A DNA stretch of 64,000 nucleotides from a phage: assembly GCA_027337125.1 (NCBI GenBank), contig GCA_027337125.1_3057.1. One strand, given 5' to 3'. Below the pieces are notes generated by a model. The model had not been told where the DNA came from. It did no database searches and saw only the letters and a list, made by a program, of their open reading frames with translations. Made by a program: the position numbers and the translations under genes. Below, in pieces: positions 10,877-56,216 of the stretch; positions within the stretch are counted from its first letter, which is position 1, and each line of letters opens with the position of its first letter.

Positions 10877-13387
<2,511 letters not shown>

Positions 13388-48697: not shown

Positions 48698-49691
48698 GTC
48701 TTATTTTGGTAGTCATCTTTATGGAACTTCTACCCCAGAATCTGATGTAGATTTTAAAGAAATCTTTGTTCCTCCTGCTCGTGATATTCTTATCGGAAAT
48801 GTTAAAGAGCATATGAGTAAAAATACCAACAACACATCATCTAAAAACACTAAAGATGATATTGACCATGAACTATACAGTCTTAAATATTTCTTTAAAT
48901 TAGCAGCAGATGCTGAAACTGTAGCATTGGATATGCTCCATACTCCACCTGAGTTAGTGGTTAAATCTGATTTGCCTGATGTATGGAAGTTTATTCAAGA
49001 CAATCGTTCTCGTTTTTATACGACTAACATGAAATCCTATTTAGGATATGTTCGCAAGCAAGCTTCTAAATACGGCGTCAAGGGTTCTCGTTTGGCCGCA
49101 TTACGTGATGTATTGAAAGTAGTTAATCAAATCCCTGATCAGTGGGTTGATTATCAAGAAGACGGTTCTATTAAGCAGCGTCGTACTAAAGTTGAAGATA
49201 TTAAGCATCGTCTTCCAGAGAACGAATTCTGTGAATGGGTGTTCCATAATCATGAGAAAACAGGCCCACAAACGTTCTATACAGTGTTGGGTCGTAAATA
49301 TCAGACAACGCTTTCTCTTATTGAGCTTAAGCAGTCACTGAACAAATTAGATGCTGAATACGGCGAACGCGCTCGTAAGGCTGAAGCGAATGAAGGTATT
49401 GACTGGAAAGCTCTGAGTCATGCTTGTCGTGGTGGACTTCAATTATTGGAAATTTACAAAACTGGTGACTTAGTTTATCCACTTCAAGACGCTCCATTTA
49501 TTCTCGACGTGAAGCTGGGTAAACACCCATTTAAAACTGTTCAAGAGTTTTTGGAAGATGTGGTCGATCAAGTAGAAGCAGCATCCATTGAAGCTTCTAA
49601 GAATGGTATGCAGCAAAAAGTAGACATGAGTTTCTGGGATGACTTCCTTGAAAGGGTGTATCTCGAAAACCACCGAAGTTATTATAAATGA
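48681..49691 (+). CDS. Nucleotidyltransferase-fold protein (pol-beta-like NTase motif)
   Basis: Start set at Met 13 of the track ORF; N-terminal GSHLYGTSTPESDVDF fits the G[SG]-x(9-13)-D-h-[DE] NTase signature; 336 aa. Confidence 0.7.
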   Translation: MKTVVKSYFGSHLYGTSTPESDVDFKEIFVPPARDILIGNVKEHMSKNTNNTSSKNTKDDIDHELYSLKYFFKLAADAETVALDMLHTPPELVVKSDLPDVWKFIQDNRSRFYTTNMKSYLGYVRKQASKYGVKGSRLAALRDVLKVVNQIPDQWVDYQEDGSIKQRRTKVEDIKHRLPENEFCEWVFHNHEKTGPQTFYTVLGRKYQTTLSLIELKQSLNKLDAEYGERARKAEANEGIDWKALSHACRGGLQLLEIYKTGDLVYPLQDAPFILDVKLGKHPFKTVQEFLEDVVDQVEAASIEASKNGMQQKVDMSFWDDFLERVYLENHRSYYK

Positions 49692-49693
49692 TA

Positions 49694-49718
49694 GGGAGCC
49701 TTCGGGCTCCCTTTTTTT
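49694..49718 (+). terminator. Strong intrinsic terminator (gggagcc-ttcg-ggctccc + U7)
   Basis: Perfect 7-bp GC stem, UUCG loop, ttttttt. Confidence 0.8.
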
Positions 49719-49742
49719 ATTTCAAAATTTTTTCATAAAACA

Positions 49743-49772
49743 GTTTACAAACATAAAGCTTTATGGTACTAT
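49743..49772 (+). promoter_or_regulatory. T4-type early promoter with conserved ggtactatacaactatcaa cassette
   Basis: -35 gtttac, 18-nt spacer, -10 tactat; the track ORF start at 49639 would read through terminator and promoter, so the start is taken at 49807. Confidence 0.6.
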
Positions 49773-49806
49773 ACAACTATCAACTGATACGGATTTGGAG
49801 AACAAA

Positions 49807-50775
49807 ATGAAAACTGTAACTATCAATAAGGGTATCTACTTCGGTAAAGAAATCTCTGGAACTTTTGAGCTCTTAGGCGAATGGTTCCCAGATAATGCTC
49901 CGGTAGATGCACAAGGAGATGGTAAAGTTTTTGTTGAAATTGACGGTAAACGTCGCGGTGTTTGGGTTTACAAATCAGACATTTCATATGATGGTGTAAA
50001 AGTTGAAGAAGTTAAAGAATCATATGAAGATATGAAAACCCGCATTAATAAAAGATTTAATGTTATGGGAATGATGACGAATGGTATTATTAACGGAAAT
50101 ATTCGTTCATTAATTATCTCTGGTGCGGCGGGTATTGGTAAAACGTATTCTTTAGATAAAGCTTTAAATAAAGCAAATGATATTGGATACATTGAGTATA
50201 AAAGCATTAACGGTAAAATCTCTGGTATCGGTCTTTATGAACAGCTTTGGAATAATCGTGAAGAGAATTCTGTCCTTTTGATTGATGATGTGGATGTTTT
50301 CTCTGATATGGACATTCTTAATCTTCTAAAAGCTGCTCTGGACACTGGAGAGACCCGTAAAGTCTGCTGGAGCACTGCATCTTCTTACTTAGAAGAAAAA
50401 GGCATTGAGCGTGAGTTTGAATTTAAAGGAACGATTGTTTTTATCACAAACGTTGATATTGACCACGAATTAGACCGTGGTACTAAACTTGCTCCACATT
50501 TACAAGCATTAGTGTCCCGCTCAGTTTATTTAGATTTGGGTGTTCACACTAATGAAGAAATTATGGTCAGGGTTGAAGATGTTATTCTTTCAACTGACAT
50601 GATGCAAAAGCGCGGTCTTTCTGATGAAGAAACTTATAAAGCATTATCATGGATGAAAGTCAATGTTAATCGTTTACGCAATGTTTCACTGCGTACTGCA
50701 CTTTATCTTGCTGACTTTATTATGACCGACAAAAACGGTTGGGAAGAAATCGCTGAAACGGTATTGTTAAAATGA
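49807..50775 (+). CDS. AAA+ ATPase (hypothetical function)
   Basis: Walker A GAAGIGKT, Walker B LLIDDVD, sensor-1-like FITNVD; 322 aa from the first ATG after the promoter. Confidence 0.8.
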   Translation: MKTVTINKGIYFGKEISGTFELLGEWFPDNAPVDAQGDGKVFVEIDGKRRGVWVYKSDISYDGVKVEEVKESYEDMKTRINKRFNVMGMMTNGIINGNIRSLIISGAAGIGKTYSLDKALNKANDIGYIEYKSINGKISGIGLYEQLWNNREENSVLLIDDVDVFSDMDILNLLKAALDTGETRKVCWSTASSYLEEKGIEREFEFKGTIVFITNVDIDHELDRGTKLAPHLQALVSRSVYLDLGVHTNEEIMVRVEDVILSTDMMQKRGLSDEETYKALSWMKVNVNRLRNVSLRTALYLADFIMTDKNGWEEIAETVLLK

Positions 50776-51491
50776 AAAAATATTTTACTATCTATAAAAC
50801 TGAAATATTAAATTTAAAGACTGGCATTAAGAAATATTATTATGGTCGACATATAACTAATAATATCAATGATTCGTATGTTGGTAGTGGAAATTATATA
50901 GAACGCGTAAAAGTGTCAAATGACCATATATTATCAAAAACTGTTTTAGAAGTTTTTGATAATTATGATAAAATGGTACAATCTGAAATATTATATATCA
51001 TGGCAGGCAAATTAAAATATGGTAAAAACTGTGTTAATCTGTCGTATGGGGGTGAAGGAGGAAAAGTTGCGGATGAAACTAGGATAAAATGTAAAAAGCA
51101 TTCCATAAATTTATGGAAAAATCCTAATCATATACAGCATATGAAGAAAAAGATGAAAGAGGTCACATCTACACCAGAAGCTAAATTAAACACTTCAATA
51201 AAAACTTCACAACGATATAAGGACCCAGTTTTTGTTAGAAAAGTTAGTAATATTATTAAAAAGGCACTAAGCAATCCTACGGTAAAAGAAAAGCATATTA
51301 ATGGAATTAAAGCTGCAAAGCGTTCTCATTTAACTATATGGCAGTATGAAGATGAATTATTCGAGCTTTGGAAAGAAACTAAATATGGATGGAGAAAATT
51401 TACAAAGGAAGCTATAAAACACGGGTATCCAAATGAACCGTATCGTAGTATGGTATCAACTTTTCAGAAAAGACATTTAGAAGAATCGTAA
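50772..51491 (+). CDS. Seg-like GIY-YIG homing endonuclease (free-standing)
   Basis: YFTIYKTEILNLKTGIKKYYYG (GIY-YIG-like), YVGSG, LSYGGEGG; resembles the segB product in this window; basic C-terminal half. Confidence 0.78.
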   Translation: MKKYFTIYKTEILNLKTGIKKYYYGRHITNNINDSYVGSGNYIERVKVSNDHILSKTVLEVFDNYDKMVQSEILYIMAGKLKYGKNCVNLSYGGEGGKVADETRIKCKKHSINLWKNPNHIQHMKKKMKEVTSTPEAKLNTSIKTSQRYKDPVFVRKVSNIIKKALSNPTVKEKHINGIKAAKRSHLTIWQYEDELFELWKETKYGWRKFTKEAIKHGYPNEPYRSMVSTFQKRHLEES

Positions 51492-51573: not shown

Positions 51574-51876
51574 ATGTTATACTCAAAGGCTCGTGAAATT
51601 TACGAAACTAAAATTAAAGAAGCAGTATTTCAGTTCGCAACAACAATGCGATGGACAAATGATTGGGAATATTCAAAAAATCATAAGAAGCCCCTGGTGA
51701 CAAGAAAGACTCATATGTTAGTGTTAATAGACCGTGAGCAGATTAAAGCCCGAGAAGCCCTCCAGAATCATAAAAAGGCTGCCTTTGAATGGTTTATGGA
51801 TAACACTGCTCCTGAGACTAAGAAAGCAGTGAGCGCTTGGTTCAGTGGAAAAAATTGTGAAAGAAGTTTCTTTTAG
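51574..51876 (+). CDS. Hypothetical protein
   Basis: Start set at Met 5 of the track ORF (GGAGG RBS 6 nt upstream); 100 aa. Confidence 0.6.
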   Translation: MLYSKAREIYETKIKEAVFQFATTMRWTNDWEYSKNHKKPLVTRKTHMLVLIDREQIKAREALQNHKKAAFEWFMDNTAPETKKAVSAWFSGKNCERSFF

Positions 51877-51878
51877 TG

Positions 51879-51908
51879 GTTTACAAGACTGTTCCTCTGT
51901 GGTACTAT
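51879..51908 (+). promoter_or_regulatory. T4-type early promoter with conserved ggtactatacaactatcaa cassette
   Basis: -35 gtttac, 18-nt spacer, -10 tactat. Confidence 0.6.
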
Positions 51909-51936
51909 ACAACTATCAACTACGGAGGAACACAAA

Positions 51937-52464
51937 ATGAACGCTAAAGATATTTTCAACCTGGTAAATTACAACGACGGTAAATTTAAATCTGAAGCAC
52001 AAAGCAAGTTCTTTAATGACATCTCAATCGGAGGTGAAATCACGGTTGATGGAGGACAAATTTACAAATCCCGTTGGAATTGGATCGTTATTATTGATGA
52101 GATTGGTATTATAGAAATTTATAAGAATACGAATAAAAATCGTACATTACACTGGTCTCGTGATACTAACGAACAGTACAAAAAGGATAAAGCATCTAAA
52201 TTATCTCGTGTAACTCAAGAAGATATTGAGTTCATCAAGAAAGATATTTTGATGTATGATAACTTAATTGCTGAAGAGCAAGCTGTTATTGATAAATTTG
52301 ATGAGATTAAAGCTTCTCGTGAAATTCCTGATTTTATGAAAGAATCAGTAAATGAACGATACACTCTCATTTCAGAGCGTATTGAAACTTACAAAAAGCA
52401 AAGAGCTGAACGCCAAAATACTCTTCGGAAGTTTGAAGAACGGTTAAAGACGGTACTCGCATAA
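51937..52464 (+). CDS. Hypothetical protein
   Basis: 175 aa, GGAGG RBS, helical C-terminal half. Confidence 0.7.
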   Translation: MNAKDIFNLVNYNDGKFKSEAQSKFFNDISIGGEITVDGGQIYKSRWNWIVIIDEIGIIEIYKNTNKNRTLHWSRDTNEQYKKDKASKLSRVTQEDIEFIKKDILMYDNLIAEEQAVIDKFDEIKASREIPDFMKESVNERYTLISERIETYKKQRAERQNTLRKFEERLKTVLA

Positions 52465-52465
52465 C

Positions 52466-52490
52466 CGCTTTATACCAAGGATGGTATAAT
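52466..52490 (+). promoter_or_regulatory. Putative MotA-dependent middle promoter
   Basis: cCGCTTTAt MotA-box-like element about 13 nt upstream of an extended -10 tggtataat. Confidence 0.45.
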
Positions 52491-52519
52491 GGTTCTAAGC
52501 CCTTTTAATTGAGATTATT

Positions 52520-52858
52520 ATGAAACAGTTGATAATTAAAAGATTGAATTTATTGATATGTTGTTTATGTATAGTAATTGCATATGGTTATTATGCTATT
52601 AATGATTATATGCATTATAAAGATTATGATGTTACTGTAGTTAATACCCTTACAGGAACTCAAGGAAAGGGGTCTAGTTTATCGTTTATTGCTGTATATG
52701 AACTAAATGACGGTTATAGATTTAGTGAATATATTTCCCCAGAGATGTATTCTTCAATAGAAAAAGGTGATAATATTACTGTAAGTTTACGTCCTTTCGA
52801 CGTAAAACAGACATGGTTTGATAATATTGTTTGGTTCTTTGGAATGGTATTAGTTTAA
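52520..52858 (+). CDS. Membrane-anchored protein (N-terminal TM helix)
   Basis: 112 aa; LNLLICCLCIVIAYGYYAI hydrophobic anchor plus C-terminal hydrophobic tail. Confidence 0.65.
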   Translation: MKQLIIKRLNLLICCLCIVIAYGYYAINDYMHYKDYDVTVVNTLTGTQGKGSSLSFIAVYELNDGYRFSEYISPEMYSSIEKGDNITVSLRPFDVKQTWFDNIVWFFGMVLV

Positions 52859-52934
52859 TCTGTGTGTGGTGCTTATGTAGTCTGTTCAATCATATTCTGT
52901 GTATTTAGTAAAATTGAAATTGAGTGAGGAAAAT

Positions 52935-53825
52935 ATGTCAGTGGTAATTAATAATGTCAATGCAGTAATTAAATCTTTAGTTAATAAAAAAATGATGAAT
53001 GAATGGACTGTATTTCGTCGTGGAGAGCCAGATAAATTTTTTCATAGATTTAACCCAACTTTGGATTTGAATGTTATTGACAGAGATGTTCATGCCGAAA
53101 TTTTAGATAAGTTTAAAGTTGATATTGGCTTTGGATTAGAAAAACATTTACAGCGAACAAATGGGTCTGGAATGAGTTTATCTAATCGCATTATGAAAGC
53201 CCTTAATAAAATTGGAGCATTGTCTCGTATTAATGCGAGTGAAATCCTTCGCAATTATAATAAAGGATATGACCTTTATGATCGACTAATGCCGAAGTTA
53301 TCATTTGACCAAATGATAGCAGATTTGTGGGAAAATCAACGACGATTATTAGCATTAGGCGCTCGATTAGCTAAAGGTCTAGATAAACAAATGATTTTTA
53401 AGACCAATAATACAGAAGACCTTAAATGCTTTAAATTTAGTATTCGCGGAGATGATTATTATATCAGAGCTCGCTCTACAGATTATGTTAATATGGGGCA
53501 TCATCTCTGTTTAGCTTTTGAAGTTTTAAAAGAAGCTGGAACATTAGAATATTCATCTGGTGCAAAATGTCCAATTGGTTCAAGTTGTATTTTAATTTAT
53601 CGCCCTGATGAATCCAGTTCATCTAAATTACCTACAAAACCTGTACCAGTTCGTAGTAACGAAAAACATTCTGAACAAATTGATTATTTTAATAAGCAGA
53701 TTGAAGAGCTGAATATTTCTATTCAACAATATGATGATGAAATTTTTAGACTATCTGGATTGAGTAGTAAAGCTAAATCTGAGCGTGAAAAGTTAATTAA
53801 AATTGTTGATTTACTTAAATCTTAA
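52935..53825 (+). CDS. Hypothetical protein with C-terminal coiled coil
   Basis: Start set at Met 13 of the track ORF (GAGGA RBS); 296 aa. Confidence 0.7.
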   Translation: MSVVINNVNAVIKSLVNKKMMNEWTVFRRGEPDKFFHRFNPTLDLNVIDRDVHAEILDKFKVDIGFGLEKHLQRTNGSGMSLSNRIMKALNKIGALSRINASEILRNYNKGYDLYDRLMPKLSFDQMIADLWENQRRLLALGARLAKGLDKQMIFKTNNTEDLKCFKFSIRGDDYYIRARSTDYVNMGHHLCLAFEVLKEAGTLEYSSGAKCPIGSSCILIYRPDESSSSKLPTKPVPVRSNEKHSEQIDYFNKQIEELNISIQQYDDEIFRLSGLSSKAKSEREKLIKIVDLLKS

Positions 53826-53833
53826 GGAATACT

Positions 53834-54862
53834 ATGAAAACTCGTTCTCAAATTGAAGATATTGTTCGTAATGCCAGTTATACTCGTGATGCTATGACAT
53901 TTTTGTGCGAAAATAATTTAGACCTTGGTAAAGTTAATTGTTCCATTCATGCCTTTAAGCATCTGAATAGCAGTGAATGGTTACGTCATTTTAGTAAAGC
54001 GGGGTATATTACACAAATGACTGCTCGTGAACAACTCGTTGATTTCTGTAAAACTATTGATTATAAAAATCCTCTATTTGTTCAAGGTGTTGGTCAAAGT
54101 AAGGTCGATTTATCATCTGGATTTTTCAATCCAAATCATTATCGTATTGAATGGAGATTTATTGCTCTATTTCGTAAACAACTAAAACAAATTTTGTCCA
54201 CAGCAAGTCGATTAAAAGGTTCTGATATCAACTTAAAGAATCTGAAATTTGATGGTTATACTCTTCAGATGGAAGTAAGACCATTAAAAGAAAATAATAG
54301 AACTGCACGAATTAGCTTTAAACCTAATACAAAAAATTCTCTTTCAATTTGCGAATGCCTTAAATCGCAGTTGACAGAAGCATTTAAGTATATGGATGTT
54401 GTTGCTGGTGTTCAGTCTAAGATTTCACAGCATTTCGAACGATTTAAATTAGACACAACAACATATGAACTTGATATGATCGTTTCATTTAAATATGATT
54501 TTTTGAGAAAGGACGAAGTCACGCAAGAGAAAAAGCAGGAAGTGCAAGATAACTTAAATTTAAATTTATCCAATTACTCATCAAACGATCCTAAATTTTG
54601 GATGTATAGTTCAGGTAATAAGGATGCATGGAAATTCAATAAAGTGAATTTTCTTCCTGTTGAAAATCCGAGTCTTAAACCTGTTGAAAAATGGCATGCT
54701 GATGCGATTGAGAAGTCTATCAAGGCAGTAGATGATGAACTCGTTAAAGCAACTAATGAAGTGTTAGAAGCTGAAAAGATGTTAGAAAAAGCTCAAGAAA
54801 AAGTCAAAAATCTCACGAAGCAACGTTCTAAACTGAACAATGCACTAAATGCACTGAACTAG
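53834..54862 (+). CDS. Hypothetical protein with C-terminal coiled coil
   Basis: 342 aa; C-terminal VLEAEKMLEKAQEKVKNLTKQRSKLNNALNALN. Confidence 0.7.
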   Translation: MKTRSQIEDIVRNASYTRDAMTFLCENNLDLGKVNCSIHAFKHLNSSEWLRHFSKAGYITQMTAREQLVDFCKTIDYKNPLFVQGVGQSKVDLSSGFFNPNHYRIEWRFIALFRKQLKQILSTASRLKGSDINLKNLKFDGYTLQMEVRPLKENNRTARISFKPNTKNSLSICECLKSQLTEAFKYMDVVAGVQSKISQHFERFKLDTTTYELDMIVSFKYDFLRKDEVTQEKKQEVQDNLNLNLSNYSSNDPKFWMYSSGNKDAWKFNKVNFLPVENPSLKPVEKWHADAIEKSIKAVDDELVKATNEVLEAEKMLEKAQEKVKNLTKQRSKLNNALNALN

Positions 54863-54891
54863 TTTACTTTACCACAAGGATGTGGTATAAT
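54862..54891 (+). promoter_or_regulatory. T4-type early promoter
   Basis: -35 gtttac, 18-nt spacer, -10 tataat. Confidence 0.6.
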
Positions 54892-54919
54892 GTTCTTACT
54901 TTCTACTGAGGAGATTAAT

Positions 54920-55921
54920 ATGACTCGTAACGAATATATCAAATCATTCAACAGCGTTATTGATGATAAAGCTATACCGATGTTTGGCCAAAATAGCGTT
55001 ATTTCTATTATCAATCAATGGCTCAATAGCGTTGACGCAAGTATTGTTTCTTCTGTTAAATTTATTCATGAAATTCGTAAAATTTCTAGCCGTGTAGATA
55101 AAGATGTTATCAAGAAAACCTTTAAAGAGTCTCGTCTTCTTTCATATTTGGTTAATCGGGATATTCTTGGTAATTTTGGGAAAGAAATTAAACGAACCAA
55201 AGATGTAGTAGGATATAATTGGTTCGGTGATGTTAATTCTTATCATCTTAATGTCAAAGAAGACCCCGAGAATATTTTTACTCGTCGTTGGATTAGTAAT
55301 TTCAGACTTTTCAAAGGACAGATTCTAAAATCAGCTTCTAAATTATGTTATGGTGATTATCGTCAAATTCATCCTTTGGCTTCTGATATGATTATCGTAA
55401 AAGAATATGAGCTTGATAAAAATAAAGTAGCTATTTTTGTGAATTATGAATTTTTTACACCAGAAACTAATCAAAAGAATATTAATAAATTTTTCTCAAT
55501 TGCTAGCACTATAACTCGTCAATTAGAAACCGCATTACTTTGTATGGAAACGGTAGAAAATATTCATACTTATCCTTTTAAGAATATGTGCGGTTGGGAA
55601 GGATATAAAATTGTAGTTAGTCTTCGTGAAGTGAAATGTGCTTATTCACCGACTGATAAAGAAATTTACCAACAAAAATGTGATGAAATTGTGAATACTC
55701 CTAAAGAAGAAACCACCCTTGAGGAACTAATGGATAATCTTAATGATTCGCCTGAACCAGTAGAAATTCGTCCAGAAGTTATTGCACTAGAAAAAGCTTA
55801 TAAAGAAGCTCTAGAAATTTCTAATAAAGCACAGAAAGAATATGTGCAGGCTAAAAGGATTTGGGAAGAATCTGTTAATCGCCTGGATCGTCTTGAACAA
55901 GCTTTACAGTTAATTAAGTAA
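54920..55921 (+). CDS. Hypothetical protein with C-terminal coiled coil
   Basis: Start set at Met 11 of the track ORF (GAGGAG RBS; the upstream ATG lies inside the promoter -10); 333 aa. Confidence 0.7.
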   Translation: MTRNEYIKSFNSVIDDKAIPMFGQNSVISIINQWLNSVDASIVSSVKFIHEIRKISSRVDKDVIKKTFKESRLLSYLVNRDILGNFGKEIKRTKDVVGYNWFGDVNSYHLNVKEDPENIFTRRWISNFRLFKGQILKSASKLCYGDYRQIHPLASDMIIVKEYELDKNKVAIFVNYEFFTPETNQKNINKFFSIASTITRQLETALLCMETVENIHTYPFKNMCGWEGYKIVVSLREVKCAYSPTDKEIYQQKCDEIVNTPKEETTLEELMDNLNDSPEPVEIRPEVIALEKAYKEALEISNKAQKEYVQAKRIWEESVNRLDRLEQALQLIK

Positions 55922-55973
55922 TTTAAAGCCAAGGATGGCTCGGAGCATAAATCATTAACCAAGTGAGAAGAAA

Positions 55974-56216
55974 ATGACCAAGCGTAAAGAATATATGGAG
56001 ATTGCTGAAAAGGCAGTCCGTGAATTAGCAATAGCGTATTATAATGAACACGGTAAATTTCCTGATAGATACAGCGTGCTTAAATCTGCTTTAACTCGTT
56101 CATATAAAAATATGCTATCAGAAGTAAGTGATATTATATACAAACATAAAGAACAAACAGGTCAAAGTCTTGATTACGACGAGACTTTTAAACAAGTACT
56201 AGGAATTAAGGAATAA
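55974..56216 (+). CDS. Hypothetical protein
   Basis: 80-aa ORF just upstream of nrdC. Confidence 0.6.

Follow-up and report, generated by a model that had tools for sequence, protein, structure and literature searches.

Even in T4, the best-studied phage, about half of the genes still lack an assigned role, and a classic case is the nrdC.1-11 block, whose genes are usually mislabelled "thioredoxin". One member of the block, nrdC.5, is connected to a bacterial defence: Srikant et al. (eLife 2022, PMC9391042) traced the failure of a T4 deletion mutant on ECOR17 to Dsr1, a SIR2 NADase defence protein. In MG1655, dsr1 by itself gave protection from this mutant, and the mutant plated again when nrdC.5 was supplied in trans. 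According to a 2026 preprint, Dsr1 senses the major capsid protein via a tetratricopeptide repeat (TPR) sensor that Avs7 and further effector fusions have as well (PMC12803255). A comparable case is DSR2, which is triggered by the tail tube protein; cryo-electron microscopy (cryo-EM) shows that DSAD1 of SPbeta-like Bacillus phages binds the DSR2 sensor domain, and this binding keeps DSR2 off. A literature search for a mechanism of NrdC.5, for other names or for later work found none. The T4 block is dispensable on laboratory hosts, and the nrdC.1-6 fragment can be removed in genome-reduced T4 (PMC9825161). Here, we characterize positions 51,574 to 55,921 of a 64,000-nucleotide stretch of phage DNA (GenBank assembly GCA_027337125.1, contig GCA_027337125.1_3057.1; hereafter the window), which an earlier note made from the sequence alone had described as a promoter-punctuated run of six uncharacterised early genes with no functional handle.

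We propose, with moderate confidence for the reading as a whole, that this region is the nrdC.9-nrdC.4 accessory block, in which NrdC.6, NrdC.5 and NrdC.4 form a tandem family, NrdC.5 counteracts Dsr1, and NrdC.4 and NrdC.6 are its sister inhibitors. A 4.5-kb query of the region matched 744 phage records, nearly all of them T4-like phages of Escherichia, Shigella or Yersinia, with IME340 as the best match (96.9% identity); the source phage is a Tequatrovirus and the region is its nrdC.9-nrdC.4 block. Gene names and order were taken from annotated relatives (ime09, SA20RB, fPS-65 and T4), in which nrdC.9,.8,.7,.6,.5 and.4 are followed by nrdC.3, nrdC.2, nrdC.1 and nrdC. The window keeps the T4 order between nrdC.10 and nrdC, except that a homing endonuclease gene is inserted after nrdC.10 and that nrdC.3 and nrdC.2 are missing. 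The label "uncharacterised" could not be maintained, because all six genes are orthologues of named T4 genes at 92-99% identity and T4 nrdC.5 has a published anti-Dsr1 phenotype; among the three large proteins (NrdC.6, NrdC.5 and NrdC.4), homology to a characterised T4 protein was found for one, NrdC.5.

The earlier note had suggested that the three large proteins are paralogs. Pairwise BLASTP among them returned nothing significant, so the paralogy is invisible without profiles. First-pass hhalign comparisons of the three pairs with shallow alignments were equivocal (34%, 10% and 0.8%), and cross-family hmmsearch gave weak matches of 1e-3 to 1e-4 that possibly reflect coiled-coil composition. 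When 1.84 billion representatives were searched exhaustively by HMMER with the NrdC.5 profile, there were no more than 13 matches, none from the other families; the family is tiny, and no bridge to the others emerged in this way. The profiles were then enriched with 14 further loci carrying NrdC.4 relatives, including divergent syntenic NrdC.5 homologues. NrdC.4 and NrdC.5 aligned at about 92.5% in local mode (E=5e-7) and at 95.8% in global mode over 300 columns. NrdC.3, which is absent from the window, is a fourth member of the family: it matches the NrdC.4 hidden Markov model (HMM) at about 1e-18 and aligns locally with the NrdC.4 profile at 97.7%. The gene order nrdC.6>nrdC.5>nrdC.4 is found in 15 loci that span all three genes and come from several T4-like lineages, a 16th locus ends within nrdC.5, and the Tequatrovirus loci, all nine of them, add nrdC.3 after nrdC.4.

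For NrdC.6, the same comparison gave no direct signal with NrdC.4 or NrdC.5 (BLASTP E>1; hhalign <=10%, even with the richer profiles), and the connection was made through a bridging family. Kanagawavirus, Winklervirus, Mosugukvirus and Marfavirus encode a single protein of 309-346 amino acids (aa) between nrdC.10 and nrdC, and in Kanagawavirus, PM2 and VAC36 nrdC.2 or the gene at the corresponding position comes just after the single-copy relative. When 52 open reading frames (ORFs) from four distant loci were searched, p338 of Entb_45 was the best match to the HMMs of NrdC.4 and NrdC.6 and the second-best to that of NrdC.5 (1e-4 to 1e-7), and the NrdC.6 HMM aligned to it from the motif helix described below through the core to the C-terminus. 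A profile built from seven sequences of the single-copy family (Kanagawavirus, PM2 and VAC36; profile K) aligned locally over 180-240 columns with NrdC.4 (91.8%), NrdC.5 (96.4%) and NrdC.6 (94.3%), while a syntenic control family with no relation to them scored <=0.8% against all family profiles. We conclude that NrdC.3, NrdC.4, NrdC.5 and NrdC.6 are tandem paralogs of one Straboviridae-specific family, as supported by direct profile alignment for NrdC.4 and NrdC.5, and by the bridging family, fold topology and shared structural neighbours for NrdC.6. The individual genes were already known; uniting the four DUF-type families into one tandem family is new and as yet unproven.

Structural models agree with this assignment. 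In the AlphaFold2 (AF2) models of NrdC.4 and NrdC.6, the order of elements is identical, with N-terminal helices, a long helix, a hairpin, a helix, a second hairpin, a linker and a terminal helix; NrdC.6 thus runs from N-terminal helices through an alpha/beta core to a C-terminal helix, and NrdC.4 has the same architecture. Both models matched the BFVD entry A0A7G3KGN9, the IME523 orthologue of Entb_45 p338 (5.8e-6 for NrdC.4 and 4.5e-8 for NrdC.6), and both matched A0A023W506, a protein of Serratia phage PS2. Family members start with an N-terminal helical domain that varies, followed by a conserved motif helix (W/F-x3-F/L-x6-(I/L)L-x2-(A/G)(S/A)(R/K)L-x2-G). The alpha/beta core comes next, in the order helix-hairpin-helix-hairpin, and a flexible linker with P-x-x-P-[VI]-E at its end leads to the terminal helix, which is about 50 residues long, reaches the C-terminus and closes with QR-x-KL-x2-A-x3-LK. 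In a joint alignment of 17 sequences, the linker and C-terminal signatures were seen in all families, and the families also have motifs in common outside the coiled coil, e.g. RRWISNFRLFKGQILKSASKLCYGD, EWRFIALFRKQLKQILSTASRLKGSD and ADLWENQRRLLALGARLAKGLD.

Each of the three proteins had been said to end in a long amphipathic coiled coil. Long amphipathic helices of 48-50 residues are indeed present in the NrdC.4 and NrdC.6 models, and heptad character was detected in all three proteins using a simple, crude heptad score (cut-off 0.7; shuffle test with n=300). Scores of 0.75-0.85 across the three proteins were matched by 0-4 of 300 shuffles. The score of NrdC.5 at residues 285-342, the most conserved segment in the family alignment, was equalled in 4/300 shuffles and that of NrdC.6 at residues 243-274 in 0/300. 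In NrdC.4, the C-terminal stretch 286-313 scores above 0.7, and the best window, to which the shuffle test applies (1/300), is an internal helix at residue 185. From sequence and models, the C-terminal segments are therefore best described as predicted long amphipathic helices with heptad character, and their pairing into coiled coils as putative.

We next consider the function of the family. At 92% identity to its T4 orthologue, the window NrdC.5 is a putative anti-Dsr1 factor. In the simplest model, NrdC.5 would be an inhibitor made before the trigger appears, because its gene belongs to a block of early/middle transcription and follows an early promoter (51879) and a MotA promoter (52467); the protein would thus be present ahead of the late capsid protein that triggers Dsr1. 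By analogy to DSAD1 and DSR2, NrdC.5 may be a stoichiometric, non-enzymatic binder that holds Dsr1 inactive, and the C-terminal helix could serve oligomerisation or docking. NrdC.4 and NrdC.6 would be sister inhibitors acting on other Dsr1 variants or other defence proteins; that they aim at other defence proteins is probable to us, and this prediction is likewise new and unproven. The earlier note proposed that the family had possibly diversified to interact with a host target; the one member for which there are data, NrdC.5 against Dsr1, is consistent with this. Ratios of non-synonymous to synonymous substitution (dN/dS) of nrdC.5 and nrdC.4 are 2-4 times those of their neighbours, reflecting faster change at non-synonymous sites, which is not the case for nrdC.6. 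Gene content at the locus is also variable, as seen in the loss of nrdC.3 in the window and in Serratia phage 92A1, where a nicotinamide phosphoribosyltransferase (NAMPT; 11820-13229), an enzyme of nicotinamide adenine dinucleotide (NAD+) salvage, replaces the NrdC.3-6 family between nrdC.10 and nrdC. The presence of NAMPT in this slot fits a locus devoted to countering NAD+-depleting defences.

A bolder version of this model, which we consider improbable, holds that NrdC.3 to NrdC.6 are diversifying inhibitors, each directed at a different defence protein that shares the Dsr1/Avs7-type TPR sensor and differs in its effector (NADases, nucleases or kinases). The conserved C-terminal helix or a tail-terminator-like core would dock in the sensor in place of the virion trigger, and the locus would be a modular, expandable array of sensor blockers, whose copy number of one to four tracks the defence repertoire of the host.

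No catalytic domain was found in the six proteins by Pfam, NCBIfam or PADLOC, which bears out the earlier impression that recognisable catalytic motifs are lacking. A local Pfam search assigned DUF7203 to NrdC.9 and DUF7235 (PF23882) to NrdC.5, the latter at 403.9 bits against a gathering cut-off of 30 and covering residues 1-342, and gave no match for NrdC.8, NrdC.7, NrdC.6 or NrdC.4. Precomputed labels on homologues were PF26899 for NrdC.6, PF23882 for NrdC.5 and PF26897 for NrdC.4. In PHROGs, each protein falls into a separate family of unknown function (matches include phrogs 2257, 2351 and 1435). NCBIfam gave zero matches, the PADLOC defence-system models gave none at E<=0.01 for any of the six proteins, and a sequence search of the PDB retrieved no relative with a solved structure.

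Several other explanations have to be weighed against our reading. The three large proteins might be unrelated, with size and C-terminal coiled coil alike by convergence or composition and adjacency coincidental among small early ORFs. The empty pairwise BLASTP, the three separate families in Pfam and PHROGs, the non-significant hhalign results for NrdC.6 against NrdC.4 and NrdC.5 and the weakness of the cross-family HMM matches would all be expected in this case. We nevertheless judge it quite unlikely, since the alignment of NrdC.4 with NrdC.5 extends over 300 collinear columns at 93-96%, profile K aligns over regions that include the core and not the terminal helix alone, and the control family remained at <=0.8%; in addition, the NrdC.4 and NrdC.6 models have the same element order and common Foldseek neighbours, and motifs are common outside the coiled coil. 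The notion that NrdC.4-6 are accessory proteins of nucleotide metabolism or redox chemistry working with NrdC draws on the adjacency of the genes to nrdC and on labels such as "thioredoxin" or "phage-associated thioredoxin", which are widespread in GenBank; in many records, every gene of the block is called "thioredoxin". These labels are a carry-over from the locus name nrdC.N and simply track it. None of the thioredoxin or glutaredoxin models of Pfam matched any of the six proteins at E<=0.1, whereas NrdC itself does match, and the empty NCBIfam result points the same way. Moreover, the predicted folds of NrdC.4 and NrdC.6 are not thioredoxin-like, and the block is dispensable with counter-defence as its sole known phenotype, which makes a redox role extremely unlikely. 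A paper on DRT1 that mentions nrdC.8 gives a transcript-level change only and calls it a reductase by name.

The anti-Dsr1 effect could also be indirect, with NrdC.5 and its paralogs acting as decoys of virion neck proteins, or altering host metabolism or proteostasis in such a way that NAD+ depletion becomes tolerable or the trigger is hidden. In favour of this view, tail terminator and completion proteins are among the weak Foldseek matches, a virion protein triggers each of the known sirtuin defences (DSR2 responds to the tail tube, Dsr1 to the capsid protein), and NAMPT occupies the same slot in Serratia phage 92A1. On the other hand, the trigger of Dsr1 is the capsid protein and not a neck protein, Pfam and NCBIfam reveal no enzymatic motif for NAD+ salvage in the proteins, and nrdC.5 alone in trans sufficed for plating (PMC9391042); an indirect action thus appears unlikely to us. 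Identity of the proteins as gpU-like tail terminators was rejected, as there was no significant whole-domain match and neither the location nor the expression is that of a late tail module.

Our preferred reading, a tandem family of defence inhibitors, has to accommodate several observations that weigh against it. Part of the profile signal is supplied by the C-terminal helix, where composition can inflate scores, and the profile link of NrdC.6 to the family is transitive, through K only. The fold evidence comes from the NrdC.4 and NrdC.6 models, through element order and shared neighbours; confidence in these models is moderate (predicted local distance difference test, pLDDT, 75-78), template modelling (TM) scores to the shared neighbours are 0.3-0.48, and neither model retrieves the other family's own BFVD representative within the top 50. 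In addition, nrdC.6 evolves slowly (dN/dS 0.06), unlike a typical arms-race gene. With respect to function, the Dsr1 evidence comes from one strain (ECOR17) and was obtained for the T4 allele, from which the window NrdC.5 differs at about 8% of residues, and direct binding, oligomerisation and a counter-defence role of NrdC.4 and NrdC.6 are what we infer.

Table 1. Genes, promoters and C-terminal helices of the nrdC.9-nrdC.4 block and its downstream junction in the window.
Feature	Position	Strand	Basis
nrdC.9 orthologue, 100 aa, DUF7203	51574..51876	+	ORF; Pfam E=4e-16; phrog_1931; 99% to T4
T4-type early promoter GTTTAC-N14-gtggTACTAT, upstream of nrdC.8	51879..51908	+	sequence reading
nrdC.8 orthologue, 175 aa	51937..52464	+	phrog_2274; 98.3% to T4
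nrdC.8 C-terminal heptad-like helix, about residues 136-175	within 51937..52464	+	heptad scan
MotA-dependent middle promoter GCTT-N14-TATAAT, upstream of nrdC.7	52467..52490	+	sequence reading
nrdC.7 orthologue, predicted membrane protein, 112 aa here	52520..52858	+	ORF; alignment with relatives; 97.3% to T4
nrdC.6 orthologue, 296 aa, precomputed Pfam PF26899	52935..53825	+	AF2 pLDDT 74.7; 94.1% to T4 (94% over 271 aa)
NrdC.6 C-terminal amphipathic helix, residues 246-295	53670..53819	+	DSSP of AF2 model: H246-274, H278-295 (kinked)
nrdC.5 orthologue, 342 aa, DUF7235 (PF23882)	53834..54862	+	Pfam E=7e-121; 92.1% to T4 NrdC.5
NrdC.5 C-terminal heptad-like helix, residues 285-342	54686..54859	+	heptad scan
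T4-type early promoter GTTTAC-N14-gtggTATAAT, upstream of nrdC.4	54862..54891	+	sequence reading
nrdC.4 orthologue, 333 aa, precomputed Pfam PF26897	54920..55921	+	AF2 pLDDT 77.7; 94.6% to T4
NrdC.4 C-terminal amphipathic helix, residues 285-332	55772..55915	+	DSSP of AF2 model: uninterrupted H285-332
Deletion junction from loss of nrdC.3 and nrdC.2	55922..55976	+	comparison with ime09
nrdC.1, seventh ORF ahead of nrdC	55974-56216	+	ORF reading

The features of the locus are compiled in Table 1. All six ORFs of the earlier note are present on the plus strand at their places, and the sizes it gave are correct if translation is taken to begin at the start codon that follows each Shine-Dalgarno sequence; for nrdC.9, this is an ATG behind GGAGG. 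They had been described as six ORFs between a Seg-like gene and nrdC, to which a seventh, nrdC.1 ahead of nrdC, has to be added. All six are under purifying selection compared with seven Tequatrovirus relatives (mean dN / mean dS per gene 0.04-0.22) and are therefore real genes. The two early promoters and the MotA-type promoter listed previously (51879, 54862 and 52466) were all found, the MotA site with its first base at 52467. The annotations of SA20RB and fPS-65 independently mark all three sites as early, middle and early, respectively, whereas a generic sigma-70 scan was uninformative for this region (27 sites found versus 24 expected). The early promoter of nrdC.4 overlaps the stop codon of nrdC.5 by a single base (the first of the promoter and the last of the codon), and a perfect 7-bp inverted repeat (TACCACA-AGGA-TGTGGTA, 54870-54887) lies inside the spacer of this promoter and overlaps the extended -10 element.

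Two changes set the window apart from its relatives. The 112-aa product described as membrane-anchored does retain an N-terminal hydrophobic anchor, but it is a truncated NrdC.7 and not a protein of native length. A single C>T change, identified by alignment with ime09 and SA20RB, creates a CAA>TAA nonsense codon at 52856-52858, by which the last 21-23 residues and with them the second hydrophobic segment are lost. The CAA codon is kept in 8/8 relatives checked (T4 and seven others), and T4 NrdC.7 has 133 aa; the window nrdC.7 may be a pseudogene in the making or reflect a sequencing error. The second change is the loss of nrdC.3 and nrdC.2, by which the region upstream of nrdC.3 was joined to the start of nrdC.1 at the microhomology GAGAAGAA-ATGA, between two translation-initiation regions. 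The same collinear junction occurs in 1 of 540 matching phage records, Salmonella phage F13076, and two genome-reduced T4 records among the 540 carry partial deletions at nrdC.3/nrdC.2. The deletion seen in the window is thus rare.

Further rearrangements were observed within the tandem array of relatives. NrdC.6 of Shigella phage Sf25 has 378 aa owing to an internal duplication of about 80 residues, and another sequence (P0056) is an in-frame NrdC.5/NrdC.3 fusion without nrdC.4; both point to ongoing recombination within the array. A third candidate, an apparent chimera with an unrelated N-terminus on the NrdC.5 helix (P0231), was dismissed as unreliable, as it derives from a lone 803-bp metagenome contig. 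The nrdC.6 gene of T4 itself (NC_000866, 9067-9894) is annotated with 275 aa and an unrelated C-terminus (…IFLFNNMMMKFSDYLD), apparently because of a frameshift; the conserved terminal helix, which the window copy and most relatives (296 aa) have, would thereby be lost.

The upstream flank contains a homing endonuclease gene at 50772-51491 (239 aa; phrog_314, E=6e-29; no Pfam match), which lies between nrdC.10 and nrdC.9 and overlaps the nrdC.10 stop by 4 bases. This arrangement is also present in T6, KMB22, N2 and one IMG/VR locus (L004); T4 and ime09 lack it. A 378-aa ORF at 49639-50775 is an over-extension of nrdC.10, whose actual gene starts at 49807 and encodes 322 aa; its product is a P-loop/AAA-like protein, 99.7% identical to that of T6, and its conservation across 1312 records extends to Vibrio phages and jumbo phages. 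In Winkler-, Kanagawa-, Mosuguk- and Marfavirus, a family of 256-261 aa (MLxEIIxxxIEENR…DDRPHAPFDGYLWEN…) is encoded upstream of the single-copy member and has no counterpart in the window. It was rejected as a fifth paralog, as profile comparison revealed no relation to NrdC.3-6.

If the family is anchored by the anti-Dsr1 activity of NrdC.5, a concrete hypothesis follows for three more T4 genes, namely that they are counter-defence paralogs with different targets. The family, with its one to four members per genome and its naturally occurring losses, of which the window is a case, provides a natural series for locating the part of the protein that determines target specificity, and it may explain differences in host range among therapeutic T4-like phages.

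Among known systems, DSAD1 serves us as a working analogy: it is non-enzymatic, is encoded by phages and neutralises a defence-associated sirtuin whose trigger is a virion protein. The likeness lies in the description of function only, and binding was seen by cryo-EM for DSAD1 and DSR2, while for NrdC.5 and Dsr1 we infer it. The tail terminator and completion fold (lambda gpU, SPP1 gp17-like, Mu and T5 p142) is a more distant comparison, with low scores and sequence identity <10% to the window proteins; in contrast to tail terminators, the window genes have early promoters, lie outside the virion module, and encode additional N- and C-terminal helical parts. The closest counterparts are those of T4. 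NrdC.5 of T4 (NP_049703, DUF7235) shares 92.1% identity over 340 aa with the ORF at 53834-54862, has the same neighbours, and corresponds to it in the full-length DUF7235 match. T4 NrdC.4 and NrdC.6 (PF26897 and PF26899; phrogs 1435 and 2257) are 94-95% identical to their window orthologues. T4 NrdC.3, NrdC.4 and NrdC.6, so far filed as separate families of unknown function, are here joined with DUF7235 in one superfamily. The two loci differ in that T4 carries nrdC.3, which the window lacks, and in that the frameshifted 275-aa nrdC.6 of T4 is full length in the window. Finally, the single-copy proteins of Kanagawavirus (Entb_45, IME523 and PEi20), Mosugukvirus PM2, Marfavirus VAC36 and Winklervirus CBH8 share with the window family its profile and fold, its C-terminal signature and the nrdC.3 slot, but are 10-27% identical to the window proteins and occur once per genome, as opposed to the three or four tandem copies of the nrdC.6-nrdC.3 array.

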